Shown here: one piece after another, positions 4,817-32,883 of the stretch
Layout of the letters: each line of letters starts with the position of its first letter
Position numbering within the stretch: the stretch's first letter is position 1
Origin: an uncultured Dehalococcoidia bacterium
GTDB lineage: Bacteria > Chloroflexota > Dehalococcoidia > Bin125
Assembly (NCBI GenBank): GCA_958295515.1
Contig: CATQGW010000001.1
Location: 777,522 to 841,521, forward strand
Length of the DNA: 64,000 nucleotides
Direction: 5' to 3'
Translations under genes and position numbers: made by a program
Notes under the pieces: generated by a model
The model's database searches: none
The model's input: only the letters and a program-made list of their open reading frames with translations
Told to the model about the DNA's origin: nothing

Positions 4817-4895
4817 GCGGCGACGTTATGCCACTTGGCGTGGCGCGATCCGCTGGCGATCCGCTAGCCTTGCGCTGAGCTCAGGAACTGGGATT

Positions 4896-7800
4896 ATGCA
4901 TAGGCGCACGATCGACATGGCTGTGAGCAGCGCCGCCGGGCGGTTGCTGCTGCGGCAATTGCGGGGGGGGGGGGGTGTAATGTCCCTCCCTGTCGGCGTG
5001 CTTCGGCCGACTGCGCTGCTGATCGCGTTGATCGGCGTGCTTGCGCTGGTCGGCGTGGCGCTGCGCTCGGAGGCCGTGGCGCAGACCAACAACGTGACCG
5101 TGGAGTTCACCCGCGTCGCCGTCGCTGAGCGCCTCGTGACCGATCGGTACAGCCAGACAGGTCCGTTCTCGCAGAACAACTACGGAATCATCCTGCGGCC
5201 CAACGACCTGACCATCAGCGGGGCAGCCCGAGTGCGGATCAGGTTCAGCGAGACGGTCAGCAGCTTCACGCTGGCGAACCTGACGGCAACCAACGCGACG
5301 CTCTCGAACCTGCAGGTGGAGACGGCCAACCGGCGTTGGACGTTCGACGTGACGCCGACGGCGGACGGCGCGGTCAGCATCAGCATCGCGGCCGGCGCAG
5401 TGAACGCCGCCGCCGATGCGACGCGCGGCAATGCGTCGGCGCAATTGAGCATGACCGCGGCGCTCGCCGCGCCCAAAGTGGTCTGGACCGACTTCACCTC
5501 GGCGACAACCCGGCTACAACGCACGGGGCCATATAGCGCCGGCACCCAGATTGACCTGAAGGTGATCTTCAGCGAGAACGTGACGGTTAGCGGCGTCCCG
5601 ACGGTCGGTCTGCACACGCCCAGCAAGACGCCGGGGTCGAAGACGTACAACGCGTCGTATCACAGCGGCAGCGGGACATCGGTGCTGCTCTTCCGCTACA
5701 CCGTGCCGTCCGGGCAGAGCTGGCTAGCCGGCCGCACCACGATCAATTCGTCGGCGATCAGCCTGCCGTCGAGCACCTCGATCGCCGACGCGTCGGGCAA
5801 CGCGGCGACGCTGACCCTGCCGCCGCGGGTGATCAAGGTGGAGCGGCACTTGCCCGCGCCCGCGCCCGGCGAACGCGCGCCGGCCGGGGTGGTCGGCGAC
5901 TCCCACGACTGGGTGTTCACCTTTAGCGAGCCGGTCACGGTGACGCAGGCGCCCGGCGCCGCAGCGCCGTTCTTCCTGGTCGGCTTTACCCTCCGGACCC
6001 CCATCAGCCCCACCCGCACCCGGGGAAACGCGCCCGCGAACTACCTGGAGGGCAGCGGCACGAACCAGCTCACCTTCCGTTACACGGTGCGAGCCGCCGA
6101 CGGTGTCGCTACCGATTCCAGCTTCGTCCCCGACAGCTATCCGTATATCCGGGTCCCCGACGGCTCAGGCGTCCGCAACGCGGCCGGGATTGACGTCCAC
6201 GGGCGAGTTCGCGAGGTCGTCAACCTCATCACCGCGCGCGAAGGGACACGGTTCGGGCGCTCACTCAGACTCTCGTTCTCGTCGATCCACGACGTCATTG
6301 TCCATCTGACCAGCAGCGATCCGGCGCGGGCGACGATCGAACCCAGTTCGTTCACGTTCTTGAGCAGCAACACCGACGCCGACCACTGGAGTACCCGGCA
6401 ACCCTTCATCGTCACGCTGCACCGCGACGATGATGAGGACGACAACGAAGTCACGATCTCCTACCGCTTCGAGAGCGATCTCACGATCATTGACGGCCGC
6501 ACCGGCACGTACTTCAAATTTCTCCTCCAGGAAGCCTTGCCCGGGGTGCCGACGGAGGTCCCCAGCGACACCCGGTCCGAAGGGACGCGGTTCACGATTC
6601 CATTCGCGCTGACGGAGTCGTTCGAGCAGGATGTGATCGTCCACCTGAGCAGCAGCCCTCCGGGGCGGATGACGTTCGAGCCCAGTTCGGTCAGGTTCCT
6701 GGGCTTCAACACCGACCCAGACCACTGGATGATCCCGCAGACCGTGACGGTTACGCTGCTCCCGGACAGCGATGCCGAAGACGACGAAGTCAGGATCCTC
6801 TACCGCTACGAGAGCGTTGACCCGTCCGTTCACGAGACCGCGGGAACGCTTACGACCTACACCGCCGCGGACAGCGCCAACGCGGAGTACGACGCGGCGA
6901 GTCTCCCCACGGACCTGCGGCTGGAGCTGGGCCTGGTGGAGGACTCCGACAATGTGGTGCCGCCCGGGGTGGAGCGGCGGGTTGCGGCGAAGCTGATCTA
7001 CAGCGGCGGCTACGTACCGCTGCAGGTCTCGGCGGACAGCTGGCTTCGGATCAGCGGCAGCGTGGAGTGGGAAGACCGGGATCGTCGGCGGCTGGACCTC
7101 GCGCGGCAGGAGACTCAGTACCTGGGCGACGCGCCGCCCTGCACGAGCCGCACGATTAACAACGTCGAGACCTGGAGCTGCGATGTGACGGTTGACGCGG
7201 CCCGCTTCGTGGTCGCGCCGGGCACGCCGGACGGAGCATTCACGATCTCCGGCAACATAGTCGTCAATGGTCGCGACTACCCCGTCGAGCTGGATGTGAC
7301 GGTGGGCACGGTCGCTGAGGTGGCCTCGGCGGAGCTGGGCTTCGCGACCGATATCGCGCCGGGCGACTCGACCGACACGCCGACCAACAACAACATCGCC
7401 GATGATCGTCCGTACCCGGACGCGATTGCGGTTGGGGAGAGCACGACGCTGCAGCTGGCGGTGCTCAACGAGCGGGGCACGGCCTCGCATACCGGCGAAA
7501 TCAGCTCGCTCGTTTTCACCACCACGGGCGGGACATTGAGTCTCGCCAACCCGGTGGGCGACTGCGTGGGCGGCGGCGGCAGCAGCTGCCAGGTGCCGGT
7601 CAACCTGCTGACCACCGACAACGCGGACGACATCCGGGTGACGCTCACGCATCCCGGGCTGGAGCAGCTGGGCGCGGGTGTGGTGCGGGCGCTCGTGGTG
7701 TCCAAAGACGGCGACACAGTCAACGCCGATCCGCTCACGGTGACCTTCCTCGGCCCCGCCGAGTCGATCGCGATCGCCGAGCCCGCCACGGCGGTGCTGA

Positions 7801-8762: not shown

Positions 8763-8869
8763 GCTGCCTTCCACCGAGCCTGCCTGAGCTGCGCAAGCCC
8801 TTGCGGGAATCTTTATGATCGCCTTATTGGCTTGCGCGCCCGTTGGGCGTTCCCTGAAGGAGTCTGAAA

Positions 8870-14000: not shown

Positions 14001-14442
14001 CGGCACGCCGGTTGTCTGGGAAGAGGGCAACACGGCGGCGCAGGTGGTGCTGGTGCAGCTCTCTGTTGAGGCGAAGACGACCGATGGCCGCGCCTCGGCG
14101 ACGTATCTGGTCGTCGGGCGGGGGAGCGCCTGGGTGCGGGCGAGTTCAGGCGAGGCGGGCGATACGCGGGTGATGTTCAATCTCGGCGCGCCGCCGCCGC
14201 CGCCCGCGCCTGCCAACCCTGCGGAGTCGCTCAGCAGCCGCACGCCGGGCGCGTTCGCGGCTTGGCTCGGAGTCGGCGCGACGAGCGCGTCGGCGCTGCT
14301 GGCGGGGCTGGACGGGATCGACTCGATTGCTGTGTGGCGCGATGGGGTCTGGCTGCGCTATGAGGTGGTGGGCGGCGCAGCGGCGGGCGGCGCGGTGGAC
14401 TTTGAGGTGCGGCGCGGCGAGATCGTGCGTTTGGGCGGCTGA
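11032..14442 (+). CDS. giant secreted/surface protein, paralog 3, with FG-GAP-like repeats (probable true start at ATG 11068, MLHNVVRLWPRLLGLVVLAGLLGVAVV)
   Basis: N-terminal hydrophobic signal; FG-GAP-like motifs (NLFGHSVDVGGGVIVIGAPDGENGAAYVFE, RWFGLGVAISDDGSTIVIS, RLGRAIAINVDGSVVLAG); C-terminal ~600 aa colinear with other two paralogs ending ...VDFEVRRGEIVRLGG. Confidence 0.7.
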   Translation: MRSGLGRCGSIQMLHNVVRLWPRLLGLVVLAGLLGVAVVTISLARAAPPGDLALTLSLVEDSDNIVPPGSTLRVAATLTYSSDYHVFLDVPPSALRIAGDLEWDSLGRRAHPLTRQGHLGGRVGWEDIAVQADPAGDIAVFGMSWDSGICCVGSADIYVGGAFAAHFSGAGPRANLFGHSVDVGGGVIVIGAPDGENGAAYVFERNAAGVWTEVAELTPGSNPAYTDPATQDKPRWFGLGVAISDDGSTIVISKVPSPGLGVAHNWGATGHVFTRPAGGWRDMDTNHPSVTALRYHDVGDGNTDPDDMFSIASRNDAYGDADIAGNGSVVALGGYPLPRTADAADQQGAVLIFRRPAGGWADAGGADGMLEQDAVLTATDDDSNNIRLGRAIAINVDGSVVLAGARGTVGTSLGSLSWPGSAFVWVQPATGWADTNDATATLSDSTANNEDQFADHVAISDSGDRIIVSDSGSRAAHVFDKPALGWQDDASADLLLTSPKPTSLDPEVGTLGVGFGGHTALDGESTAIVGQLVWQLSVLRSHAGGFAFDLAAADPQAGAERLFPCTSRSADGLTTWTCSVYVGDTSITIPLGTPDGTFTISGVLTVDGVEYSDALEVTIDEVNEVTEVQFNFAEYESGLKQGERYPGAIAAGETTRLRLGVLNEHGKASAGGSIASVLFTTTAGSLSTSIGGGCMGGGGLVCQIPVSALTAANADKIDLTVAHPGQGSSGVAEIRATVLAVDGETFNADPLRVTLTGEAALLAISEPATSVLNVHTEDFGAERDDRDMLTLTVRATDEEGRKAAVPTHSRRVVITGPDGRRVDVGDIPSSPASEHAVIAVWPKVRVTFAPHLGASRTAAELLGNYDVVNKWSLGGSWQWYSVDANGDPARGATNFVANQGDVLRFDDLVLDADGNLQVELDVDAGRANPLTPGEYTLELRAGALTARRSFSVVGDAAALTLSEATGSTEDGGRLSLTATLTDGDGNTVADGTPVVWEEGNTAAQVVLVQLSVEAKTTDGRASATYLVVGRGSAWVRASSGEAGDTRVMFNLGAPPPPPAPANPAESLSSRTPGAFAAWLGVGATSASALLAGLDGIDSIAVWRDGVWLRYEVVGGAAAGGAVDFEVRRGEIVRLGG

Positions 14443-14541
14443 GCTGCTTCCCCATCGTCCTGCAAACTCGTTTTGCAATCTCTATCTTTTGCGCATTCCG
14501 GTTGGACGCCCGCGCGGCGCGGGTCGGCAAGGAGCGCTGAG

Positions 14542-16272
14542 ATGGCCAAGTTTGATGTTCTGATTCGCGGCGGCACGGTTGTGGATGGCACTCGCGTGCC
14601 GAAATTCAAGGCCGATGTCGGGATTGCGGATGGGCGGATCGCCCAGGTGGGCGGCAAGATGGATCCGGCCGATGCGGAGCAGTTGCTTGAGGCGGAGGGG
14701 CTGATCGTCGCGCCCGGCTTCGTGGACCTGCACACTCACTACGACGCGCAGATTCAGTGGGATCCGTACTGCACGATCTCCGGCTGGCATGGGGTCACGT
14801 CGGTGGTGCTGGGCAACTGCGGCTTCGGCTTCGCGCCGGTGCGCGAGGAGGAGCGCGACCGGGCGATGCTGACGATGTCGCGCACCGAAGCGATTCCCTT
14901 CGACTCGATGCAGGCGGGGATGATCTGGGACTGGGTTTCGTTCCCGGAGTGGCTGGACACGCTGGATCGCATCCCCAAGGGGGTGAACTGCCTGTCGTAC
15001 ATGCCGCTCGCGCCGCTGATGACGTGGGTGATGGGTCTGGAGGCGGCGAAGAGCCGTCGCGCCAACGACGGCGAGATTGCGGAGATGCAGCGGCTGCTCG
15101 GCGAGGCGATGGACGCAGGGGCGTGCGGCTGGTCGACGCAGCGGCTGGGCGAGAACTCGGTGCAGGCGGACTACGACGGCACGCCGATGGTGACCGACAT
15201 CATGAGCGATAACGAGTGTCTGGCGCTGGCGGAGGTGCTCGCCGAGCGCGACGAGGGCTTCATCCAGATCACGCAGTTCACCGGCGATCTCGACGCGGAC
15301 CTGGAGTTTCAGTCGCGCCTGGCGGCGGCTGCGCGGCGTCCGATTCTGCACAATCTGATCGCGGTGAGCCGCGAGAACGCCGATGTGCATCGCAACCGCA
15401 TGCGGTGGCTTGAGGAGTGCAACGCGCGGGGGGAGCCGATCTTCGGCCAGGCGGCGACGATTCGCGCGGCGTTCACCTTCACGCTCGAGGACTGGAATCT
15501 CTACGACTCGTCGCCGGCCTGGAACTACGCCACGACCGGCACGCGCGAGGAGAAGCTGGAGAAGTTCGCCGACGCCGGGGTGCGCGCCAACATCAGGGCG
15601 GAGATCGACGAGGCGATCAAGAAACTCGGTCAGACCCAGGCGCTGGGCGGGCCGATTGAGGAGCTGCTGATCCAGGATCTGGCGCACAAGCCCGAGTTGG
15701 AGGAATACGTGGGGATGACCGTGGGGCAGGTCGCCGAAGCGCGCGGCGTTCACGCCGTCGATGCGATGCTCGATCTGGCGCTCGAGACCGACCTTGCGGC
15801 CGAGTTCCTGACGCCGATGCGCGAGCAGAACGACGAGTGGACGGCGGAGATGATGTCCTCGCCCTATGTGGTGCCGGGCGTCTCCGACGGGGGCGCGCAC
15901 ACGAAGTTCCTGACGGCCGGCTCCTACCCGACCGATTTCCTGATCTGGCTGGTGCGGGATACGCAGCGGCTGACGCTGGAGGAGGCGCACTACCGGCTCT
16001 CCTACCTGCCGGCCCGTGCGGCGGGTTTCCGGGACCGCGGCGCGATTATCGAGGGCGCGCCGGCCGATGTGGTCGTCTACGACCTCGACGGGCTGAAGAT
16101 CACGCCGGAGTGGACGGGCGAGGTTGTCCACGACTTCCCGGCGGGGGAGTGGCGGCGGGTGCAGCGTCCGGACGGCTATCGCTGGATTCTGGTCAATGGG
16201 GAGGTGACGTTCGAGGACGGCAAGGAGACGGGCGCGACGCCGGGCAAGCTGCTCCGCCACGGCCGCGGCTAG
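14542..16272 (+). CDS. D-aminoacylase family amidohydrolase, copy 2
   Basis: MAKFDVLIRGGTVVDGTRVPKFKADVGIADGRIAQVGG... about 85% identical to 8870..10600; AAGGAG SD. Confidence 0.8.
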   Translation: MAKFDVLIRGGTVVDGTRVPKFKADVGIADGRIAQVGGKMDPADAEQLLEAEGLIVAPGFVDLHTHYDAQIQWDPYCTISGWHGVTSVVLGNCGFGFAPVREEERDRAMLTMSRTEAIPFDSMQAGMIWDWVSFPEWLDTLDRIPKGVNCLSYMPLAPLMTWVMGLEAAKSRRANDGEIAEMQRLLGEAMDAGACGWSTQRLGENSVQADYDGTPMVTDIMSDNECLALAEVLAERDEGFIQITQFTGDLDADLEFQSRLAAAARRPILHNLIAVSRENADVHRNRMRWLEECNARGEPIFGQAATIRAAFTFTLEDWNLYDSSPAWNYATTGTREEKLEKFADAGVRANIRAEIDEAIKKLGQTQALGGPIEELLIQDLAHKPELEEYVGMTVGQVAEARGVHAVDAMLDLALETDLAAEFLTPMREQNDEWTAEMMSSPYVVPGVSDGGAHTKFLTAGSYPTDFLIWLVRDTQRLTLEEAHYRLSYLPARAAGFRDRGAIIEGAPADVVVYDLDGLKITPEWTGEVVHDFPAGEWRRVQRPDGYRWILVNGEVTFEDGKETGATPGKLLRHGRG

Positions 16273-16343
16273 GGATCGCTCCACCCGCTCCGGCTCTTGC
16301 ACGAATCCCCGCCGCAAGGCGGGGGTTCGGGTACCGTACAGAA

Positions 16344-17168
16344 ATGGATCCGCCCAGCAAGAGCGCGCTCAATCGCCTCGGTAGTCGGCTGAGAAAATCT
16401 GATCCGCCCTCGGCGGAAGATCGGGAGGTTTACCGCGAGTACGCGGCCACGTTTCTTCCTCCGCTCAATGAGGCGATCGAGGCGGTCGTCGAGAACTCCG
16501 GGTCTGTGAACTTGGCCGAGCTCGGGGCGCGAATCAAGAAATTCGAGTCAGTCGTCGCCAAGCTCCGTCGTCAGCCAACGAAGTTAGCCAGCATTGAGGA
16601 CATCGGTGGATGTCGTCTGGTTGTGCTCACGCTGGGAGACATTGAAGATGTTCATCAGTCCTTGGATCGGACATTGAACATCGTGCGGTTCCGCGATTAC
16701 CGCGAGGATGCCCACGATGGCTATCGGGCAGTCCATCTGGTTGCGCAAATGACGCCAAGACACCGCATCGAGATCCAGATTCGGACCGAACTTCAGAACG
16801 AGTGGGCCAACCTCTCCGAGCACTTGTTCCAAAGGGTTGACCCGGAGATCAAATACGGTGGCGGGCCACGAGGCGTTCGTCAGAGGCTTGATGCGCTGTC
16901 GGACGAGGGGTGGGAGCTGGATCGTCTGAGACAACGTCTGGCTGATGGGGACCTAGACTACCGCACGCTACGCCAGGCCGCGTTGTCCTCAGCGAGATTT
17001 GGCGTGGAGTGGAACGCTGAGATGATGGAGAGAGTGAGACACGTTGAGCAAGAGATGGGGCGGATCTTTGAACAGCTAAACATCTCGCTCGGCGATTTTC
17101 GCGCTAGAATAGATGCGCTGAGGCACGATGGGAGTTTGACCGATGAAGCACTTCGTCCTCCTCTATGA
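16344..17168 (+). CDS. RelA/SpoT-domain (alarmone synthetase-like) protein, small stand-alone; toxSAS-like candidate
   Basis: DIGGCRLVVLTLGD...DGYRAVHLVAQ...IEIQIRTELQNEWA matches RelA/SpoT synthetase core (D-x-G-x-R, GYxSxH, EIQIRT..W); 275 aa; 3' end overlaps next gene by 26 nt. Confidence 0.7.
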   Translation: MDPPSKSALNRLGSRLRKSDPPSAEDREVYREYAATFLPPLNEAIEAVVENSGSVNLAELGARIKKFESVVAKLRRQPTKLASIEDIGGCRLVVLTLGDIEDVHQSLDRTLNIVRFRDYREDAHDGYRAVHLVAQMTPRHRIEIQIRTELQNEWANLSEHLFQRVDPEIKYGGGPRGVRQRLDALSDEGWELDRLRQRLADGDLDYRTLRQAALSSARFGVEWNAEMMERVRHVEQEMGRIFEQLNISLGDFRARIDALRHDGSLTDEALRPPL

Positions 17169-17451
17169 CCACCTGACCCACGAGGTACAACTGGACGAGT
17201 TCACCGACCAAGGCGCTGCGTTGGATGCGCTTCGCACAGCAGAGTTGGCGCTGAAACCACACAAAGAAGTCGTGCTTTTTCTGGCAGAGTCGGAGAGAGC
17301 GTTGAAGATCACGCACTCCTCGTATTTCAGCAACGGACGCGGCAACGGCGCGACACAGGATGCGCCCGTCGATCTCGAATCACTCACGAGATTGGTCGAG
17401 CGAGCTGAGTCCGATTTGCAGAGTGCGCACGATGCGCTCGCGGCCAGATAG
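17143..17451 (+). CDS. small acidic protein (102 aa) overlapping 3' end of RelA/SpoT gene; candidate antitoxin-like partner
   Basis: MKHFVLLYDHLTHEVQLDEFTD...EVVLFLAESERALKITHSSYF; start inside upstream gene; paralog at 17610..17861. Confidence 0.5.
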   Translation: MKHFVLLYDHLTHEVQLDEFTDQGAALDALRTAELALKPHKEVVLFLAESERALKITHSSYFSNGRGNGATQDAPVDLESLTRLVERAESDLQSAHDALAAR

Positions 17452-17609
17452 ATGAACAAACCTGGCAGAATGCGCTCGCGCTGTTTCCGCACTGCCCATG
17501 ATCTCGGCTCAGGCGACGAGGGGTCCCGCAGCCACCGGTCTGAGCGGCTCAAAGATGCGTTCATCGCCCGCTTGAGCGCGATGGGCCTTGTGGGACGGGA
17601 GGACGAATC

Positions 17610-17861
17610 ATGAAGTGGATTTTGCTGCACTGCGACCACGACACCGACGAGGTGACGCTGACTGAGTTTGACCGCGAAGACTCCGACGCGGCGATCGCCG
17701 CGCTCAACGCGGCTGAGCGGGGCAAGCGGCCGCAGGACGAAGTTGTGCTCTTCTTCTCCGAAGGTGAAGAGTCGCTCCGCCGCACCCACTCCCGCTATTT
17801 CTACGATGAGCGCGAAATTGCCGAGCAGCTCCGCAAGACGCTCGCCGCTATCCGCCGCTAG
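17610..17861 (+). CDS. small acidic protein (83 aa), paralog of 17143..17451
   Basis: MKWILLHCDHDTDEVTLTEFDRED...EVVLFFSEGEESLRRTHSRYFYDE; same motif set as upstream paralog. Confidence 0.5.
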   Translation: MKWILLHCDHDTDEVTLTEFDREDSDAAIAALNAAERGKRPQDEVVLFFSEGEESLRRTHSRYFYDEREIAEQLRKTLAAIRR

Positions 17862-17956
17862 CCTTACGCTGGGCTCGGGAATTGGGACTATGCGTAGGGG
17901 CACGATGGACATGGCTGTGAGTAGGGCTGCCGGGCGGTTGCTGCTGCGGCAATTGC

Positions 17957-17969
17957 GGGGGGGGGGGGG
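17957..17969 (+). repeat. G13 homopolymeric tract at translation start of giant protein paralog 2
   Basis: 13 consecutive G (gcaattgc-G13-taATG); upstream conserved leader ORF from ATG 17890 is out of frame with the main ORF at this tract length. Confidence 0.9.
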
Positions 17970-17971
17970 TA

Positions 17972-20900
17972 ATGCGCCTCTGGCGGCGCGTGTTTCGGCC
18001 GACTGCGCTGCTGATTGCGTTGATCGGCGTGCTCGCGCTCGGCGGCGTGGCGCTGCGCTCGGAGGTTGCCGCGCAGACCAACGACGTGACCGTGGAGTTC
18101 ACCCGCGTCGCCCACATGAAGCGAAACCAGATCCATGGCTTCCTCCAAGGCACCACCACGCGTCCGAACGACCTGGCCATCAGCGGGGCAGTCCGAGTGC
18201 ACATCAGGTTCAGCGAGGAGGTCAGCGGCTTCACGCTGGCGAGCCTGACGGCGAGCAACGCGACGCTCTCGAACTTGCACATGCGGCAGACCAACTGGCG
18301 TTGGACGTTCAGCGTGACGCCGACGGCGGACGGCGCGGTCAGCATCAGCATCGCGGCGGGCGCGGTGCAGGCCGCCGCCGACGCGACGCGCGGGAATGCG
18401 TCGGGGCAATTGAGCATGACCGCCGCGCTCGGCGCGCCCAAAGTGATCTGGGCCGACCTCACCACCTCGGGGTCAACCTGGCAACGCCATAGGCAGCGGT
18501 ACAGCGCCGGCACCCGGATTGACCTGACGGTGATCTTCAGCGAGTACGTGACGGTCAGCGGCGTCCCGACGGTCGGTCTGCACACGACCAGCAAGCCGGC
18601 GCCCAAGGCGTACGATGTGCCGTTTGCCGCAAGCGACGGGTCGGTGCTGCTCTTCAGCTACACCGTGCCGGCCGGGCAGAACTGGTCCCGCGGCTGGACC
18701 ACGATCACTTCGTCGGCGATCAGCCTGCCGTCGAGCGCCTCGATCACCGACGCGGATGGCAACGCGGCGACGCTGACCCTGCCGCCGCGGGTGATCGAGG
18801 CCGAGCGGCTCTTGGCCATGCCCGCGCCCGGCGAACGCGGGCCGCAAGGCGTGGTCGGCGACTCCCACGACTGGACGATCACCTTTAGCGAGCCGGTCAC
18901 GGTGACTCAGGCGCCCGGCGCCGAAGCGCCGTGGATCGCGATCAGAGCCACCCTCCAGGACGGCAACTCGGGAACGGTGCGCGCGAACTACCTGGAAGGC
19001 AGCGGCACGGATACGCTCACCTTCCGTTACACGGTGCGCGCCGCCGACAACGTCGCTACCGATGCCAGCTATGGCTTCGACAGCGCACGGTATGTCCGCG
19101 TCCCCGACGGCGCAGGCGTCCGCAACGCGGCGGGGCTTGATGTCAGCGGGCGATTTGCCACTGCCGCCAACGTCGCCATCCAGCGCGAAGGGACGCAGTC
19201 CGTGCGCGGAGCCAGACTCTCGTTCTCGTCGGTCCACGACGTCACCTTCCACCTGACCAGCAGCGATCCGGACCGGCTGACGATCGAACCCAGTTCGCTC
19301 ACGTTCTTGAGCAGAAACACCGACGCCGACCACTGGAGGACCTGGCAGGCCGTCACCTACACGGCGCACAGTGACGATGATGAGGAAACCAACGAAGTCA
19401 CGGTCTCCTACCGCTTCGAGAGCGATTACACGGCCATCGACGGCCTCACCGGCAGGTACCTCCTGTTTCGCATCCAGGAAGCCGCAGTCGGGGCGCCGAC
19501 GGAGGTCCCGAGCGGCACCCGGTCCGAAGGGACGCGGTTCACGATTCCATTCGCGCTGACGGAGCCGTTGGAGCAGGATGTGATCGTCCACCTGAGCAGC
19601 AGCGATCCGGCGCGGATGACGTTCGAGCCCAGCGCGGTCAGGTTCCTGGGTACCAACACCGACCCCGACCACTGGATGATCCCGCAGACCGTGACCGTTA
19701 CGCTGCTCCCCGACAGCGATGGCGAAGACGACGAAGTCATGGTTCTCTACCGCTACGAGAGCGTTGACCCGCCCGTTCACGGCACCGAGGGAACGCTCGC
19801 GACATACACCGCCGCGGACAGCGCCAACGCGGACTACGACGCGGCGAGTCTCCCGGCGGACCTGCGGCTGGAGCTGGGGCTGGTCGAGGATTCCGACCAG
19901 ATTGTTCCGCCCGGGGGCGAGCGGAAGGTTGCGGTGAAGCTGATCTACAGCGGCGGCTACGTACCGCTGCAGGTCTCGGCGGACAGCTGGCTACGGATCA
20001 GCGGCAGCGTGGAGTGGGAGGACCGAGATCGGCGGCGGCTCGGTCTCGCGCGGCAGGAGACTCAGTACCTGGGCAGCGCGCCGCCCTGCCAGAGCAGCAC
20101 GATCGACACAGTCGAGACCTGGAGCTGCGATGTGCTGATCGACGCCGCGCGCTTCGTGGTGCCGCCGGGCACGCCCGACGGAGCATTCACGATCTCCGGC
20201 AACATAGTCGTCAATGGTCGCGACTACCCCGGCGAGCTGGAGGTGACGGTGGGCACGGTCGATGAGGTCGCCTCGGCCGAGCTGGACTTTGCGACCGATA
20301 CCGCTGATGATCGTCCGTATCCCGACGCGATTGCGGTTGGTGAGAGCACGACGCTGCAGTTGGCGGTGCTGAACGAGCACGACAAGGCCTCGCATACCGG
20401 CGAAATCAGCTCGCTCGTGTTCACCACCACGGGCGGGGCATTGAGTCTCGCCCACCCGGTGGGCGAGTGCGTGGGCGGGGGCGGCAGCAGCTGCCAGGTG
20501 CCGGTGGATCTGCTGACGACCGACAACACGGACCAGGTGCGGGTGACGCTCACGCATCCCGGGCTGGAGCAGCTGGGCGCGGGTATCGTGCGTGCGCTCG
20601 TGGTGTCCAAAGACGGCGACACCATCAACGCCGATCCGCTCACGGTGACCTTCCTCGGCCCCGCCGAGTCGATCATGATTGGCGAACCTGCCACGGCAGT
20701 ACTTAACTACGACCCGCCGGAGCGGGACGGCGGCGGCGAAGATGTCCGCGATCTGCTGAAGCTGTCGGTCATCGGGTCCGATGACAGCGGCCGCACGGTG
20801 CCGCTGACGGCGCCGTTCGGCAGAGTGATCGTTAGAGCCCCGGATGGCATGGTTGTCTGGAGCGGCTCGAGCTATGAGGTGCAGAACGGGATGCGGATCG

Positions 20901-21658
20901 ACTGGCCGCTGCGCGAGCGGGACGATGACGGGGCGCTCGTGGACGGCGACTCCAGCAAGAGCGGGATTCAGCCGAAATATATCCGCGATGCGGACGGCAA
21001 CCTCCAGGTGCAAATCGATATTGAGGCGGACGAGGCATCGCAGCTGACGAAGGGTGACTACACGATCGAGCTGCGCGCTATCGGGGAGACGGCCGAGCAG
21101 ACCTTCTCGGTCGGCGGCGCGCCGGCGGAGATTGCGCTGAGCGAACCGGGAGGCTCAACGGAAGACGGCGGGCGGCTGACCGTGACGGCGAGATTGACCG
21201 ACAGGGACGGCAACCCGGTGGGGGACGGGACGCCGGTTCGCTGGCAAGAGGGCAGCGTGGGGTCGCATGTGGTGTTGGTGCAGATCTCTGCTGAGTCGAG
21301 GACCAGCGGCGGCAGCGCGTCGGCGACGTATCTGGTGGTTGGGCGGGGCACCGCTTGGGTGCGGGCGAGCTCAGGCGAGGCGGCGGACACGCGGGTGATG
21401 TTCAACCTCGGAGTGCCGCCGCCGCCGCCTAACCCTGCGGAGCAGCTCAGCAGCCGTCGGCCCGGCGCGTTCGCGGCCTGGCTCGGCAGGGGCGCGACGA
21501 GCGCGTCGGAGCTGTTGGCGGGGCTTGACGGGATCGACTCGATCACCGTTTGGCGCGACGGGGGCTGGCTGCGCTATGAGGTGGTGGACGGTGCAGCGGC
21601 ATCCGGTGGGGTGGACTTTGAGGTGCGGCGGGGCGAGATCGTGCGTCTGGGCGGCTGA
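17972..21658 (+). CDS. giant secreted/surface repeat protein, paralog 2
   Basis: MRLWRRVFRPTALLIALIGVLALGGVALRSEVAAQ signal peptide; colinear with paralog 1 throughout including duplicated ~100 aa domain and C-terminal ...VDFEVRRGEIVRLGG. Confidence 0.75.
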   Translation: MRLWRRVFRPTALLIALIGVLALGGVALRSEVAAQTNDVTVEFTRVAHMKRNQIHGFLQGTTTRPNDLAISGAVRVHIRFSEEVSGFTLASLTASNATLSNLHMRQTNWRWTFSVTPTADGAVSISIAAGAVQAAADATRGNASGQLSMTAALGAPKVIWADLTTSGSTWQRHRQRYSAGTRIDLTVIFSEYVTVSGVPTVGLHTTSKPAPKAYDVPFAASDGSVLLFSYTVPAGQNWSRGWTTITSSAISLPSSASITDADGNAATLTLPPRVIEAERLLAMPAPGERGPQGVVGDSHDWTITFSEPVTVTQAPGAEAPWIAIRATLQDGNSGTVRANYLEGSGTDTLTFRYTVRAADNVATDASYGFDSARYVRVPDGAGVRNAAGLDVSGRFATAANVAIQREGTQSVRGARLSFSSVHDVTFHLTSSDPDRLTIEPSSLTFLSRNTDADHWRTWQAVTYTAHSDDDEETNEVTVSYRFESDYTAIDGLTGRYLLFRIQEAAVGAPTEVPSGTRSEGTRFTIPFALTEPLEQDVIVHLSSSDPARMTFEPSAVRFLGTNTDPDHWMIPQTVTVTLLPDSDGEDDEVMVLYRYESVDPPVHGTEGTLATYTAADSANADYDAASLPADLRLELGLVEDSDQIVPPGGERKVAVKLIYSGGYVPLQVSADSWLRISGSVEWEDRDRRRLGLARQETQYLGSAPPCQSSTIDTVETWSCDVLIDAARFVVPPGTPDGAFTISGNIVVNGRDYPGELEVTVGTVDEVASAELDFATDTADDRPYPDAIAVGESTTLQLAVLNEHDKASHTGEISSLVFTTTGGALSLAHPVGECVGGGGSSCQVPVDLLTTDNTDQVRVTLTHPGLEQLGAGIVRALVVSKDGDTINADPLTVTFLGPAESIMIGEPATAVLNYDPPERDGGGEDVRDLLKLSVIGSDDSGRTVPLTAPFGRVIVRAPDGMVVWSGSSYEVQNGMRIDWPLRERDDDGALVDGDSSKSGIQPKYIRDADGNLQVQIDIEADEASQLTKGDYTIELRAIGETAEQTFSVGGAPAEIALSEPGGSTEDGGRLTVTARLTDRDGNPVGDGTPVRWQEGSVGSHVVLVQISAESRTSGGSASATYLVVGRGTAWVRASSGEAADTRVMFNLGVPPPPPNPAEQLSSRRPGAFAAWLGRGATSASELLAGLDGIDSITVWRDGGWLRYEVVDGAAASGGVDFEVRRGEIVRLGG

Positions 21659-23438: not shown

Positions 23439-24335
23439 TCAGGTGACCGCGATCACAACTCCCAGGATCGTGGCAATGGCGATCATCGCGGCGATTGTGA
23501 TGGACATCACCAGTGTGATTCGGTCGTGGACGCCGACGATTGACTTCTGTATCTCCAGCTGAGACTCCAGCACCGATGTCCGCATTTTGCCCTCGACTTC
23601 GGCCAGAGCGTTCTGCGTCTCAACCCGGGCTCCCTTGAGTTCGGCGCGCATTTCGGCGAGGTCTTTCTGGGTTTCGGTGCGCATTTCGGCGAGGTCTTTC
23701 TGGGTTTCGGCGCGTGCCTCTGCCAGCATCGCCTGCATTTCGGCGCGGTCTTTTTGGATTTCGGCGCGCATTTCGGCGAGGTCTTTCTGGGTTTCGGCGC
23801 GTGCCTCTGCCAGCATCGCCTGCATTTCGGCGCGCATTTCGGCGAAGCCTCTCTGGGTTTCGGCGCGCATTTCGGCGAGGTCTCTCTGGGTTTCGGCGCG
23901 CGCCTCTGCCAGCATCGCCTGCATTTCGGCGAAGTCTCTCTGGGTTTCGGCGCGCGCCTCTGCCAGCATCGCCTGCATTTCGGCGAGGTCTTTCTGGGTT
24001 TCGGCGCGGGTCTCTATCAGCATCGCCTGCATTTCGGCGAGGTCTTTTTGGGTTTCGACGCGGGATTCCCTGAGTTCGGCGCGCATTTCGGCGAGGTCTT
24101 TTTGCGTCTGCGCCTGGGATTCCGCGACCAGGGCGCGCATCTCCGCCACCGCCACGCTGATTCCTGATTCAATCCGCTCCAGCGCCCGGTCCTGGTCTTC
24201 CTGCCGCACGAGATCGTTCTGCGAGGCCTCGACCTGCTCGGCGAGCACATCCACCACCTCCACCGCCGCCGCTTCGTCGGCGAGGCCGCGGCGCACCAGC
24301 ACATCGCGCAGTCTCGGCCTGTCGAGGATCGCCAT
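23439..24335 (-). CDS. coiled-coil tandem-repeat protein with C-terminal transmembrane anchor
   Basis: Repeats of AETQKDLAEMQAMLAEAR over about 200 aa; C-terminal LVMSITIAAMIAIATILGVVIAVT; underlying DNA 23640..24110 is a degenerate tandem repeat. Confidence 0.6.
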   Translation of the reverse strand: MAILDRPRLRDVLVRRGLADEAAAVEVVDVLAEQVEASQNDLVRQEDQDRALERIESGISVAVAEMRALVAESQAQTQKDLAEMRAELRESRVETQKDLAEMQAMLIETRAETQKDLAEMQAMLAEARAETQRDFAEMQAMLAEARAETQRDLAEMRAETQRGFAEMRAEMQAMLAEARAETQKDLAEMRAEIQKDRAEMQAMLAEARAETQKDLAEMRTETQKDLAEMRAELKGARVETQNALAEVEGKMRTSVLESQLEIQKSIVGVHDRITLVMSITIAAMIAIATILGVVIAVT

Positions 24336-24363: not shown

Positions 24364-25947
24364 CTACCACCACTCGACATCGGCCTCGATCTGGAGCAGC
24401 GCCGCCGCGAGATCGTCGGCGGTCGCGGCGTCCCCGGCGACGAGTACCCACGCCGTGCGGAGGTGGTCGACCACGCGGATCGCTCCATGCGGGGTGTCCC
24501 AGCCGATTACCCGCTTGTCGGCTGCGCCCCAGGCTTGGCCGTTGGAGAAGGCGACCAGCCACTCGCGCAGGCCGGCGATGCCCTCGGTGTGCTCGCCGGC
24601 ATCGTCGAATGCCAGCGCCCAGAGTGTGAGCCACTCGTCTTGTCCTCCGCCGTCGCGCTGGAACGCGTACAAGCGGTCGCCGCCCCAGCCCGCCGCCGCC
24701 GCGCTCGCCTCCGCCTGCCTGCCGGTCGAAGCTGAGATCAGCAGTCGCAGATAGTACTCGCCGAGCGTGTCCTGGTACGGCGTTACGAGCGACGGCTCCT
24801 GACCGATCACCCTCCATGCTTCCCGCGGCAGCGCTCTTTCGATCAGCGTGTCGAGTACGGTCATGTCCAACGCCGACTCGCGCGACTCGTACTTGTCGAC
24901 ATGCAACAGCTGTTCCATCGTGTCCGGCGGATCGCGCAATCGGTCGTTCAGTGCATCGGGACCGCCTTCGAGCAACAGCTGTGCGACGAACTCAGCGCTG
25001 TCGCGCTCCGGCGACACAAGCCAGTCGGAAACTTCGCTCGCGAGGTCGGAGTAGCGAGGCAGCCCGTGGCCGTCGTCGCTTGTCTCTGGTTCGAGCTGAT
25101 CGATCGCGCCCTGAATCGCCGTGTGGTCCGGCTGAAGCGTCGCACGGGATGCGTCCGCTTCGCGGAGCCACCACAACGACATCCAGCGATCCATCTCTAC
25201 CCGCCAAGGCAGCCGACGCAACTCGCGCCCATCGAGCAAACCACGTTGCAGATACGACGCGACCTGGTGCGAGAGCGCTTGCGCCAGGTTGGCCGTCGAT
25301 GCCGACGCGACCAGAGTGATCGATCCTTGCATCCCGGGGTGGTACACGTGCCAACTCGACTGATCTGCGGTGCTCAATACATCCAACAGTTCGGGCGTCC
25401 AGTCCGACTCGAGCAATCCCAGCCCCACGTGCCAGAGGTGCCATACCCTCGATCGTGCGGGATCGAACTCGCCACGCCGTGGATACCAGTATCCGCACTG
25501 CGACGCGCGCATCCAATCAAGCGACATCATCTGAATCGCCGGCGTTGCGTCAAGGGGTAACCCTCGCGCCTCAGCGGTCGCATGTATCACCGCTCCGATC
25601 CAGGGATGGGTGCTCTGGTCAATGAGCGTCGGTCCGTCCAACTCCTCCCACCGCCCGCTTGCCGTCGGGGTGCCCCAACGGGCGCCGTTCTGCTCGTAGA
25701 GCCGCAACGATTCAGCGCACCATTCCACCTCGCGCTCAATCCGCCGCTGCAAGTCGGCGTTGTCGCGCGCAACCTCGGCCAGCGGACGCCAGCTGTCCCT
25801 CGGCCAACGCGGCGAGAGCGTTGTGCGCTCAACAGGCGACGGCGACGCCGACGCGGAGTTGGCCGTTGCCGCCGGCTCAACGGTGTCCTGCTGCGCAATC
25901 GCGTCGTCCGAGTCTTGGTCCGGCGGCTGCTCAGCGCCTTGACTCAC
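24364..25947 (-). pseudogene. putative lipoprotein (paralog of 26089..27582 with degenerate HExxH) separated from its signal-peptide exon by a C15 homopolymer; phase-OFF or frameshifted in this assembly
   Basis: Upstream minus-strand segment 25984..26044 encodes MRWIATTICLVLLAMIVAC (lipobox IVAC) then a C15 tract (25969..25983); a tract of 14 or 17 would put it in frame with VSQGAEQPP... body; HELVH of the paralog replaced by LAQALSHQ. Confidence 0.55.
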
Positions 25948-25968
25948 CGCCTGCGCTTGCTGTAACGC

Positions 25969-25983
25969 GGGGGGGGGGGGGGG
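25969..25983 (-). repeat. C15 (plus-strand G15) homopolymeric tract between signal peptide and mature domain of lipoprotein gene
   Basis: 15 consecutive G counted on plus strand. Confidence 0.9.
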
Positions 25984-26088
25984 CTGAGCACGCCACGATC
26001 ATGGCGAGCAACACAAGGCAGATCGTCGTCGCTATCCATCGCATGACCAGATCCTACCATCACTCTTTGAGCTGCGGTGGTTCGCCGC

Positions 26089-27582
26089 CTAGTTCCACCA
26101 GCCGGGCTCCTCGGTGAGCAGTAGTGCGTCCCGGGTGATCTTGTCGGCGGTGCGGCGATCGGTGGAGACGATTAGCCAGGCGGTTTGCGCGCTGTTCACG
26201 ATCCGAATTGCGCCTGCTGCGCCGTTGTAGGCGAGCGCCCGCCCGCTGGAATCCGTAACGGCGGAGCTGTTGGACCAGGCGATCAGCCACTCGCGCAGGC
26301 CGCTCACGCCTTCGCGGTGCTCTTTGGCGTTATCAAACGCGATCAGCCAGATTGCAGTGGTGCTGCGGCGTCCGTTCACGACTGACCAGACCGCCAGTTC
26401 GTCGCCGCCCCAGCCGGCCGCCGCCTCGGCTGCCAGCGCCGGCGTGGACAGCCCGATCAGGTTGGCCAGATACTGTTCGCCCATCGTGGTGGCCGACGGT
26501 TCCTCGCGCGGCTCGAATATTTGCCGCCGCAGTTCGGCCAGGCGCTCCGCGTCGATTGGCGGCTCGCGTGATTCGAGCTTGTCGGGGTGCAGAATCTGTT
26601 CCGACGACTGCGGCGGGTCGGCGAGCAGCGCGTTCACCCGCGCCCAGCCGCCCGCGTTCTGCTGCTCCCGCACATAATCCGCGCCGCTGATGTAGGGGGC
26701 AAAGAACTCCTGGCCAATCAGCGGCGCAATACCCAGCGACAGCCCGTTGCGCTCGGGGAGCCAACCTCCATCCTCTCCCCAGTCATACGTTCGAAGCAGC
26801 GCCAGCACTCCGGCCGAGTAGATCACCGCCTCTACGGTGCTGGCGTCTCCTTCAATGATCCAGGAGATGGCGCTGGCATGGTCGCTGGTTACATCTTCGC
26901 GTAACGCTTCGATTCCGCCCTCCAGGTACTGATCCTGCATTGCATGTACGAGCTCGTGTGTAATCATATAGAACTGATGCGACGCGAGCGGCGTATCGCC
27001 GACGAGTGTGACTGCCTTGGTTTCGGTCGAGTACCAGCCGCCCACGCTGTACGCCCAGAGCGCGTTGAGCACGCTCGGCGTCCAATCCTGGTGGTTAATC
27101 CCCAGCGCGCGCTCGAACAGCCAAAAACCCCCCTCGTTCGCGCCCTGATCTTCGTGCAGCAGCGCGTGGCAGGCGACGATGCGCAGGTCGTCGTGCGAGA
27201 TGATCCGAAACTCCGGCAGCGGGTCGAGCGGCAGCTCGCGCAGCTGCGCGGTTGCCGTCGCCAAATCCGTAATCCAGGCCATCTCCGCGTCGCCCAGCGG
27301 GTCGAAGAAGCGCCGCTGGTCGCGCTCCGACGCATCCTCGCCGAAGATCGAGCCCGGGCCGCCGTCGGGCAGCAGCCCCGCGTTGGCGCGGCACCAAACT
27401 CGCTCGGCAAGCACCAGCTCGTGCTGATCGACCAGATACTCGGCCAGTTCGTCCGCGGTGAACCGGAACCCGAGCGGCCATTCGCCCACGACCGGCTCGT
27501 CGCGCCACTCGACGGGCGCGCCTGAGCAGGCCGTGGCGATCAGCGCCGCGACCGCCAGCGCCACTGTCAACCATGTCCGCAT
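26089..27582 (-). CDS. putative secreted/lipoprotein zinc metallopeptidase (HExxH)
   Basis: GGAGGTGGATAC-ATG start at 27582 (MRTWLTVALAVAALIATACSG signal); HELVHAMQ motif; C-terminus ...EEPGWWN similar to paralog ...EADVEWW. Confidence 0.65.
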   Translation of the reverse strand: MRTWLTVALAVAALIATACSGAPVEWRDEPVVGEWPLGFRFTADELAEYLVDQHELVLAERVWCRANAGLLPDGGPGSIFGEDASERDQRRFFDPLGDAEMAWITDLATATAQLRELPLDPLPEFRIISHDDLRIVACHALLHEDQGANEGGFWLFERALGINHQDWTPSVLNALWAYSVGGWYSTETKAVTLVGDTPLASHQFYMITHELVHAMQDQYLEGGIEALREDVTSDHASAISWIIEGDASTVEAVIYSAGVLALLRTYDWGEDGGWLPERNGLSLGIAPLIGQEFFAPYISGADYVREQQNAGGWARVNALLADPPQSSEQILHPDKLESREPPIDAERLAELRRQIFEPREEPSATTMGEQYLANLIGLSTPALAAEAAAGWGGDELAVWSVVNGRRSTTAIWLIAFDNAKEHREGVSGLREWLIAWSNSSAVTDSSGRALAYNGAAGAIRIVNSAQTAWLIVSTDRRTADKITRDALLLTEEPGWWN

Positions 27583-29818: not shown

Positions 29819-30940
29819 TCATTTCCGACCCACGCGGGCCAGCCGGTCCAGCCAGCTGGAGACTTGCTGCTCGAAGCGCGCCCACCACTCGCCCGCCTGC
29901 GTATGTGACGCCGCGAGCTCTGTGCGTAATGCTCGCAGCTCCGCCCTGACCTCGACCAACTCGCTGCGCAGCGCTTCTAACGTTGGCCGACTGTCCGACT
30001 CGCTCTGCCGCTCGCCGACCAGCGCCAGTTGTTTGTCCAACTCTGCGACCCGCACGCCGAGGCCCTGCAGCCCGGCGATTTGTTCCGCGTGCGAGACCTT
30101 TTGCGCCGCCTCCACCGCCCCGATCACCTCCTTCGACTCGCCGCGCATCGCCTCGATCTCGCTCCGCGCCTGCTGCAATTGCTCCGTCAGCGTCAGCACG
30201 CCGTCGCGCACCAAGCTCATCAGCTTGTTCTCGCTCGCCTCGAACCGCTCATTCAATGCGGTCCGATTGGCCGCTCGCGTCTCCGCCGCCGCGGCGCGCG
30301 CATCTTCAAGCTGGCGGTACACATCCGAAACCAGCTCCAACATCTGATTCAGCACCCCCGACAACTGCTCGGTCGGCATGCCGCGCTGTTCCAGCGCCGC
30401 GTGGAGCCGCTCGATTTGCTCGGCGAGGTCCGACGGCGTTGGTGAGTCGAGGTCTGCTTCGCCCACCTCGCGCACCGCATCGGCCGCCTCTTCGTCGAAG
30501 ACCCGCAGCACTCGTTCGCAGAGGTCCACCGCCTTCAGGACATCGTTGCGCGAAAGGTCGCGCAGCGGAGGGTGCGCCCAGGTGTTGCGCAGCTGGTAGA
30601 CGGCGTAGATCGCGTTCGTCGTCTCGGGCTCCGTGAGTTCACCGAACAGATCGCTGCGCGACTTCACGGCCTCCAGGAACATTGCAATGTCGACCAGGAA
30701 CTCGTTCTCCTCCTCTTTGGAACGCGCGACTCCACCCTCGGCGCGCTGCGTGTCCAGCGTCTCTCGCGTGTTGCGGATCTCCTCCTGCTGATGTCCCGTG
30801 AAATATGAGTACAGCTCGTCGAACCACGACTCTGCGTACTTTGCGCGCCACTGATTGGCGATGTGGCGGCGCATGGCGCTGCGGTAGATGTTCAGCACCC
30901 GGGTCAGGCGCTCGTGCTGCGGAAACTCGCTGGCGGCCAC
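29819..30940 (-). CDS. hypothetical protein with N-terminal HEPN-like Rx4H motif and C-terminal coiled coil
   Basis: AVYQLRNTWAHPP (R-x4-H) in N-terminal helical domain; C-terminal 200 aa strongly coiled-coil. Confidence 0.4.
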   Translation of the reverse strand: MAASEFPQHERLTRVLNIYRSAMRRHIANQWRAKYAESWFDELYSYFTGHQQEEIRNTRETLDTQRAEGGVARSKEEENEFLVDIAMFLEAVKSRSDLFGELTEPETTNAIYAVYQLRNTWAHPPLRDLSRNDVLKAVDLCERVLRVFDEEAADAVREVGEADLDSPTPSDLAEQIERLHAALEQRGMPTEQLSGVLNQMLELVSDVYRQLEDARAAAAETRAANRTALNERFEASENKLMSLVRDGVLTLTEQLQQARSEIEAMRGESKEVIGAVEAAQKVSHAEQIAGLQGLGVRVAELDKQLALVGERQSESDSRPTLEALRSELVEVRAELRALRTELAASHTQAGEWWARFEQQVSSWLDRLARVGRK

Positions 30941-32551: not shown

Positions 32552-32643
32552 GGAGAGGTGTCCGAGTGGCCGAAGGAGCCGATCTCGAAAATCGGTAGGT
32601 GCGGTGACGTGCCTCGTGGGTTCGAATCCCACCCTCTCCGCCA
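32552..32643 (+). tRNA. tRNA-Ser (anticodon CGA)
   Basis: GGAGAGG/CCTCTCC acceptor stem, anticodon loop cTCGAaa, long variable arm, GTTCGAATCC T-loop, encoded CCA. Confidence 0.85.
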
Positions 32644-32694: not shown

Positions 32695-32784
32695 GGAGAG
32701 GTGCTGGAGTGGCCGATCAGGCACGCCTGGAAAGCGTGTAGGGGCGCAAGTCCCTCGTGGGTTCGAATCCCACCCTCTCCGCCA
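32695..32784 (+). tRNA. tRNA-Ser (anticodon GGA)
   Basis: Same acceptor stem; anticodon loop cTGGAaa; long variable arm; encoded CCA. Confidence 0.85.
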
Positions 32785-32883
32785 GCCCCCTCTGTCATTC
32801 CCGCCCTCAGATCCGTCATACCCGCCCGCCCCACCTTGCAACCAGGCGAATACCTGTTCTATCATCGCGGCAGGAGCGGCCCG

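Follow-up and report, generated by a model that had tools for sequence, protein, structure and literature searches.

A poly-C tract as the candidate phase switch of a DUF8575 surface lipoprotein in uncultivated Dehalococcoidia

Background

Textbooks treat contingency loci that change by slippage as a trait of a few host-adapted pathogens, in which they are read as adaptations to recurrent and unpredictable selection on the cell surface, as exerted by immunity and phage. The closest described systems are NalP and MspA of Neisseria meningitidis, the genes of which contain a coding poly-C tract that ranges from 6 to 15 nt among isolates, with only every third length being ON (PMC3723659). More generally, contingency loci with a homopolymer at their 5' end are hypermutable, preferentially affect genes for surface structures and undergo reversible frameshifts (PMC2831843). 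Three further reports describe contingency loci in Campylobacter jejuni (poly-G), Bordetella pertussis (poly-C/G), Listeria inlA (5' poly-A) and Mycobacterium tuberculosis (PMC1891110, PMC3025981, PMC11898584). A literature search on Chloroflexi, Dehalococcoidia and metagenome-assembled genomes yielded no earlier report of phase variation in them.

Here we describe a locus from an uncultivated member of the Dehalococcoidia, situated in a 64-kb stretch of DNA that was analyzed as a whole (henceforth the window). We consider it probable that the product of this locus is a surface lipoprotein of the DUF8575 family, tethered to the membrane, that its expression is gated by a hypermutable poly-C tract, and that the window, with 15 C's, carries an OFF allele.

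Anatomy of the tract and its reading frames

Examination of the minus strand of the window reveals that the ATG at 26044 opens a peptide, starting MRWIATTICLVLLAMIVAC, with a basic N-terminus (MRW), a hydrophobic core and the lipobox IVAC (25988..26044; Cys codon at 25988-25990), which agrees with the pattern of lipoprotein signals ([LVI][ASTVI][GAS]C at the lipobox). In a family alignment of 31 homologues the residues A18, C19 and S20 of this segment are nearly invariant. On the same strand the Cys codon is followed by TCA and a G, together 4 nt, and then by exactly 15 C's (25969..25983, minus strand; G15 on the plus strand), which constitute the proposed slippage switch. Translation from the ATG through the C15 tract gives a short ORF for a pre-lipopeptide of 37 aa (MRW...CSAPPPPRVTASAGGESRR*; 25931..26044, minus strand). 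The body of the lipoprotein, comprising 534 codons and a stop (24364..25968, minus strand), lies in the frame that is reached by the loss of one C or the gain of two, and contains a GTG-started ORF of 527 aa (25947..24364). When the frames are simulated, C14 results in a product of 559 aa and C17 in one of 560 aa, whereas C12, C13, C15, C16 and C18 all lead to early termination; the peptide spanning the tract in the fused lipoprotein is (C)SAPPPPALQQAQAVSQGAEQPPDQDSDDAIAQQDTVEPAATANSASASPSPVER.

These readings bear out several elements of the original prediction, namely the lipoprotein signal, the fusion of signal peptide and body by C14 or C17 and the presence of the 527-aa ORF. Its tract length of 15 is likewise correct, but it had placed the C's directly after the lipobox, and TCAG in fact sits between the Cys codon and the tract. 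The early stop that it had announced for C15 does occur, albeit at codon 13, and not 15, when counting starts from the codon that contains the last C. Finally, its description of the gene as currently OFF holds for the sequence as assembled, in which a one-base miscall at a 15-mer homopolymer is possible.

In light of this arrangement, we propose that the poly-C tract, 4 nt past the codon of the lipid-anchor Cys, gates expression of the lipoprotein. Slipped-strand mispairing at replication would add or remove C's, and every third length (C14, C17) would join the signal peptide and the body in a single frame (ON), with the extra prolines of the ON alleles being absorbed by the disordered tether that follows. 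At the other lengths translation would end after a short lipopeptide (OFF), and the window would be in this state by one extra base. Under such a mechanism, changes of the tract within a lineage would be frequent and reversible.

The DUF8575 family and its lost active site

The window lipoprotein probably belongs to the DUF8575 family (PF26686), as indicated by precomputed matches on a 95% identical homologue (P0001) and on all 36 homologues; a Pfam-A scan of the window protein itself returned no family, the scanned copy possibly being without the PF26686 model. The body begins with a disordered tether of about 50 residues made up of Pro, Gln and Ala, in which, on account of the disorder, a variable number of prolines should be tolerated. 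It is followed by a helical domain with the fold of zincin-like catalytic domains and by a C-terminal α/β domain that resembles the PknH sensor. With the lipobox at its N-terminus, the protein is predicted to be lipidated and exposed on the surface.

The family alignment of 31 sequences resolves into three clades, A, B and C, and the lipobox is kept in all of them. Clade A, with the window gene and P0001-P0011, has SHQVAS, SALTVR or STQIVR at the position of the metallopeptidase motif HExxH, and its downstream Glu column, at which the third zinc ligand is expected, is variable, being occupied by E, G, I, N or D. Clade B (P0012-P0028) displays HEMVH or HELIH, and clade C, which holds P0030 and the paralogue upstream of the window gene, displays HELVH; the Glu column in these two clades is always E (WLIEADA or WLIETDA in B, WIIEGDA in C). 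Hence both the His and the Glu of HExxH are absent from all clade-A orthologues, whereas clades B and C keep HExxH...E. In the window copy the degenerate active-site helix LSHQVAS (within LAQALSHQVAS; 25255..25275, minus strand) carries HQVAS (residues 259-263 once signal peptide and body are fused) where an active gluzincin or other zincin metallopeptidase would have HExxH, and E295 (WLREADA) is found at the Glu column.

Since the whole of clade A is without the motif, the loss of the catalytic site appears to be old and conserved, as is the pattern in pseudo-enzymes. The conjecture that this copy, with LAQALSHQ where HExxH should be, is a catalytically dead paralogue gains support from this clade-wide loss in the presence of a zincin-like fold. 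Given the loss of HExxH throughout the clade, the protein is probably a pseudo-peptidase repurposed for binding, and the dead peptidase domain could act as the binding module; the original prediction had likewise suggested a decoy or binding variant. The NCBIfam Hvo_1808 family of surface proteins (NF038145) scores 40 bits with clade A and 117 bits with the HELVH paralogue; as both values are below its cut-off of 200 bits, these proteins are only distant relatives of that family.

The HELVH paralogue itself is a DUF8575 lipoprotein of 497 aa (26089..27582, minus strand) with the lipobox ATACS, HELVH at 26944-26958 and WIIEGDA. It had been correctly recognized from the sequence as having an intact HELVH, but it was called downstream; in the direction of transcription it is upstream.

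Tract alleles among related strains

A protein search with the C14-fused window sequence as query recovered the 95% identical P0001 as an in-frame protein of 559 aa on a 782-kb contig; among JGI metagenome sequences it revealed no close homologue. Its DNA (L001) reads TCAG-CCGACCCCCCC-GCGTTGCAGCAGCAAGCG, a short interrupted tract (C2-GA-C7) that is in frame, as compared to TCAG-C15-GCGTTACAGCAAGCG in the window. The cluster at 90% identity has ten members, and seven of these are in frame and 559 aa long; they contain CSADPPALQQQ, except for P0042, which has CAADPPALQQQ. The other three are broken or frameshifted: P0045, which corresponds to the window, is a 527-aa split call identical to the window body; P0038 is a 527-aa split call from a different strain; and in P0039 an out-of-frame translation of the signal peptide forms the N-terminus, with KPPPPE next. 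At the DNA level P0039 (L082, from a sample shared with L001) has the allele TCAAG-C12-GAGCTACAG, which is out of frame.

Orthologues from a second species group are about 47% identical, have conserved synteny and contain the poly-C right after the lipobox (AACSDG). Four of these loci have identical flanks (GGACGGT...GCAGCAGGCGGCGACTGA) on either side of tracts that differ in length by single bases: C14 in L085 (ON; contig labelled 25.6x), C15 in L084 (OFF; contig labelled 1.97x, from the sample that also yielded L085), C16 in L083 (OFF; a scaffold-style assembly) and C17 in L089 (ON; a circular 3.31-Mb contig at 25x). Such frame-toggling differences in length on conserved flanks are what a contingency locus is expected to display. 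The remaining DNA-level alleles of this group are GGATG-C7 in L004 (ON; record OZ241913, titled Dehalococcoidia bacterium), GGA-C14 in L086 and, identically, in the independent Logan assembly L087 (both OFF), and GGATGGT-C24 in L088 (OFF). At the protein level there are further out-of-frame alleles (P0008, P0070), ORF calls that start at the tract (MVPPPPQQ..., MPPPPPQQ...), tract-less alleles (such as CSDSNSQQQ) and interrupted ones (CSDGPSPPQQ).

Across the two species groups the post-lipobox tracts seen in DNA are 7, 12, 14, 14, 15, 15, 16, 17 and 24 nt long. This range of 7-24 nt covers all three frames in several independent assemblies, and the flanks barely change. The long-tract alleles are ON at two of eight loci, or two of seven if L086 and L087 are counted as one, a scarcity for which random drift in the length of the tract, or noise in its measurement, could account as well as selection does. 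The strains among which the polymorphism is seen are divergent at other sites too (dS 0.04-0.4). Comparison with related strains, which the original prediction had recommended as a check, reveals that both length and frame differ in two species groups, and together with the intact and selected bodies described below this supports its phase-variable reading at the level of strains. The strain alleles also contradict, at the level of the lineage, the opposite scenario of a constitutive frame with no heterogeneity, hidden by a homopolymer sequencing error.

Integrity of the body and alternative explanations

All bodies are intact, extending for 523-535 codons after the tract with no second lesion. 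Across body pairs dN/dS, computed pairwise by the Nei-Gojobori method, is 0.10-0.43; for pairs in which both alleles are OFF it is 0.30 (window and L082), 0.22 (L083 and L084) and 0.20 (L086 and L088). These values support the view that the gene is not decaying and that its body is under purifying selection, OFF alleles included, as is characteristic of contingency loci. They also bear on the possibility that we are dealing with an ordinary pseudogene in the process of being lost, with the poly-C as a mutational hotspot at which inactivation is irreversible. Such an account would be consistent with the fact that most long-tract alleles are out of frame, and with a gene cluster in flux, a neighboring paralogue having been lost from the window and reduced to a truncated form in L082. 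However, the OFF bodies, six distinct ones from seven loci, are free of any second lesion over about 1.6 kb, the OFF-OFF dN/dS is confined to 0.20-0.30, and the in-frame tracts C14 and C17 coexist with OFF tracts on identical flanks, which makes simple decay very improbable. The same persistence of frameshifted alleles with intact bodies and low dN/dS would be expected if expression were largely independent of the DNA frame, owing to RNA polymerase slippage or to +1 ribosomal slippage on CCC-C, with the tract tuning the level of expression in place of switching it. Insect endosymbiont genes with poly(A) frameshifts, which are reportedly rescued by transcriptional slippage, show this very pattern; furthermore, tracts of 12-24 nt are longer than the known slippage lengths of A/T runs, and ON alleles, at 2/8, are not enriched. 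Nevertheless, the short interrupted in-frame allele is the one found in most strains of the species to which the window belongs, which argues that recoding is not a conserved requirement and led us to reject conserved programmed frameshifting, a related candidate; we consider an expression indifferent to frame to be unlikely. In a complementary role, slippage on the run could make OFF genotypes leaky, and this would fit the lack of enrichment of ON alleles.

A separate question is whether the C15 of this particular assembly is a miscall, such that the true length is C14 (or a mixture) and the gene is ON here, with the tract still being hypervariable across the lineage. Long homopolymers are the main residual class of indel errors in long-read consensus sequence, and any single long homopolymer length, the C15 of the window included, could be off by one in assembly. 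The nearest in-frame length is only one base away, and the C15 allele of L084 (OFF) comes from the contig labelled 1.97x. On the other hand, the split 527-aa ORF identical to that of the window is on record as P0045, and P0038 is split in the same way. Out-of-frame lengths are encountered across assemblies with different naming styles, and one of them recurs in the output of an independent assembler (L086 and L087, the latter from Logan). A search for net frameshifts at short homopolymers between the window and L001 found none. We regard a miscall in the window as possible but rather unlikely. As a general explanation of the polymorphism, artefact is countered by the 7-24 nt range, which goes beyond what platform error can produce; and the several styles of contig naming (hifiasm-like, coverage-tagged ctg, scaffold, Logan), from which the platforms are here judged, make a homopolymer error of a single platform an unlikely cause. 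Together these observations favor a DUF8575 lipoprotein gated by slippage in its poly-C tract, and support its placement among the homopolymer contingency loci, a kind already known.

Gene neighborhood of the lipoprotein

The 44-nt intergenic region preceding the lipoprotein gene (26045..26088, minus strand) contains the element GGTAGGAT-CTGGTC just before the ATG, and in the second species group GGTAGG(A/C)T followed by 6 nt and the ATG is kept. It might serve as a Shine-Dalgarno sequence or, if the mRNA is leaderless, as an extended -10 box; a scan of 26045..26088 for consensus promoters called none.

In relatives a third DUF8575 paralogue (529 aa, with an intact HEAVH; 8315-9984 in L001) is located between the two genes of the window. 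The window is without about 1.67 kb at ~26061-26073, the junction of this missing paralogue, and L082 retains only a 154-aa remnant of it (7332-7796). The DUF8575 cluster thus gains and loses members between strains, and each locus of the second species group has three to five DUF8575 genes. Just downstream of the lipoprotein gene, 23439-24335 (minus strand) codes for a coiled-coil protein of 298 aa that has a hydrophobic segment toward its C-terminus. Tandem repeats of 33, 54 and 87 nt (AETQKDLAEMQAML...) make up this gene, and their copy number varies between strains, as the product has 298 aa in the window versus 269 aa in L001 and L082.

Farther along, the ORF at 29819-30940 (minus strand; 373 aa) has orthologues in L001 and L082 with faint or weak matches to HEPN_Swt1, and may be a defense or RNase-type gene in the vicinity of the variable surface-protein cluster. 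Two tRNA genes on the plus strand, 32552-32640 and 32695-32781, have long variable arms and span 87-89 nt; beside them, at ~32787-32820, indels relative to L001 are clustered.

Long G/C runs and the tracts of the Big_12 genes

The window has a G+C content of 67%, and its G/C runs are distributed by length as 5 (46 runs), 6 (10), 7 (1), 13 (2) and 15 (1), with none between 7 and 13. A first-order model of the window predicts 0.002 runs of at least 13 nt, against three observed, and 0.00015 runs of at least 15 nt, a length that the C15 attains. In view of this excess and of the gap between 7 and 13, the long tracts form a separate class and are not the tail of the base composition; the C15 is accordingly a long 5' coding homopolymer beyond compositional expectation, as are the tracts of contingency loci. 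Among 830 kb of loci from other phyla, taken from the same search as a control, there is a single run of at least 10 nt, located at a contig end, and among 149 kb of loci from close relatives there are 13, a comparison that is biased in that the loci were chosen around the gene.

The other two long runs of the window are both G13 on the plus strand and both precede genes for secreted proteins with Ig-like Big_12 domains. One (17957..17969) is separated by 2 nt from the ATG of the 1228-aa protein downstream (17972-21658), and the other (4963..4975) by 4 nt from that of its 1260-aa paralogue (4980-8762). The homologue of the former tract is 14 nt long in both L001 (17689-17702) and L082 (15959-15972), and the tract itself appears to be of the same hypermutable class as the C15. 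Both G13 tracts may act within a ribosome-binding region or a promoter. Comparable tracts are present in relatives, where a homologous intergenic site has G14 in L004 (13085-13098) versus G16 in L085 (13432-13447), L089 has a G17 (18743-18759) and L003 has a G12 (5717-5728) upstream of a clade-A orthologue. The non-coding G tracts of relatives directly precede TAAT, TAAC or TAAA (AGTAAAA in L003), and those of the window are likewise followed by TGTAATG and TAATG. The G12 of L003 was also considered as a promoter-spacer tract (TTGACA-N5-G12-AGTAAA, with a perfect TTGACA); the promoter scan left it uncalled and the orthologous region of L002 is tract-free, so that this is no more than a tentative reading by eye.

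Both G13 tracts are preceded by a conserved leader of about 110 nt (4860-4962 and 17855-17956, plus strand). A search of Rfam at gathering thresholds returned only two tRNAs, and the leader corresponds to no known RNA family therein. It holds an ATG-started frame, M[HR]R[RG]T[IM]DMAVS[SR]AAGRLLLRQLR-GGGG, which crosses the tract and, relative to the Big_12 ORF, is in frame for copy 1 but out of frame for copy 2. Given this frame, the G13 might be part of a coding sequence extended at its N-terminus. The regions 4980-10600 and 11032-21658 consist of repeated modules, each with a giant Big_12 or FG-GAP protein and an amidohydrolase, and segments of L001 match two regions of the window, at 83% and at 93-97%; the pattern is suggestive of segmental duplication among surface-protein genes.

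In a wider and more tentative proposal, for which we put the chances at a little short of even, the C15 would be one of a lineage-wide set of poly-G/C contingency tracts that switch or tune several surface proteins, with the Big_12 and other genes being controlled via upstream G tracts before TAAT or TAAA. If so, these unculturable bacteria would practice stochastic bet-hedging over the composition of their surface, a first for the phylum as far as the literature searched is concerned.

Implications and comparison with known systems

The signature of slippage in an uncultivated, high-G+C member of the Chloroflexota would carry the contingency strategy into a lineage very different from those in which it is familiar. 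That several tracts at the 5' ends of genes for exported proteins differ between strains flags these proteins as potentially under fluctuating selection at the surface. Spectra of tract length in existing metagenomic reads would expose the ON/OFF dynamics of populations cheaply and free of culture. At a practical level, as gene callers split or truncate such genes (527-aa, 478-aa and 'MVPPPP...' calls), counts of them from annotation pipelines and pangenome studies will be wrong.

With regard to the described systems, the locus shares with homopolymer contingency loci in general a tract near the 5' end of a surface-protein gene, and with NalP and MspA in particular a poly-C in the 5' coding region, an exported surface protein as product and a tract length that varies among strains. 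NalP, moreover, is lipidated, as is predicted of the protein described here, and is a peptidase family member. Unlike NalP, DUF8575 is an unrelated family with a dead peptidase motif. The host is a member of the Chloroflexota with 67% G+C and not a proteobacterial pathogen, and its tracts extend up to 24 nt. Furthermore, the ON/OFF expression of NalP has been demonstrated by immunoblot, whereas the present locus is known from its sequence. The poly(A) genes reported from endosymbionts resemble it in that homopolymer frameshifts are kept in genes that are otherwise intact and under purifying selection; yet those belong to AT-rich reduced genomes with fixed frameshifts, while here the run is poly-C and its length varies through all three frames. 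Most described contingency loci come from host-adapted pathogens, and in this respect the Dehalococcoidia locus, in an uncultivated bacterium, stands apart from them.
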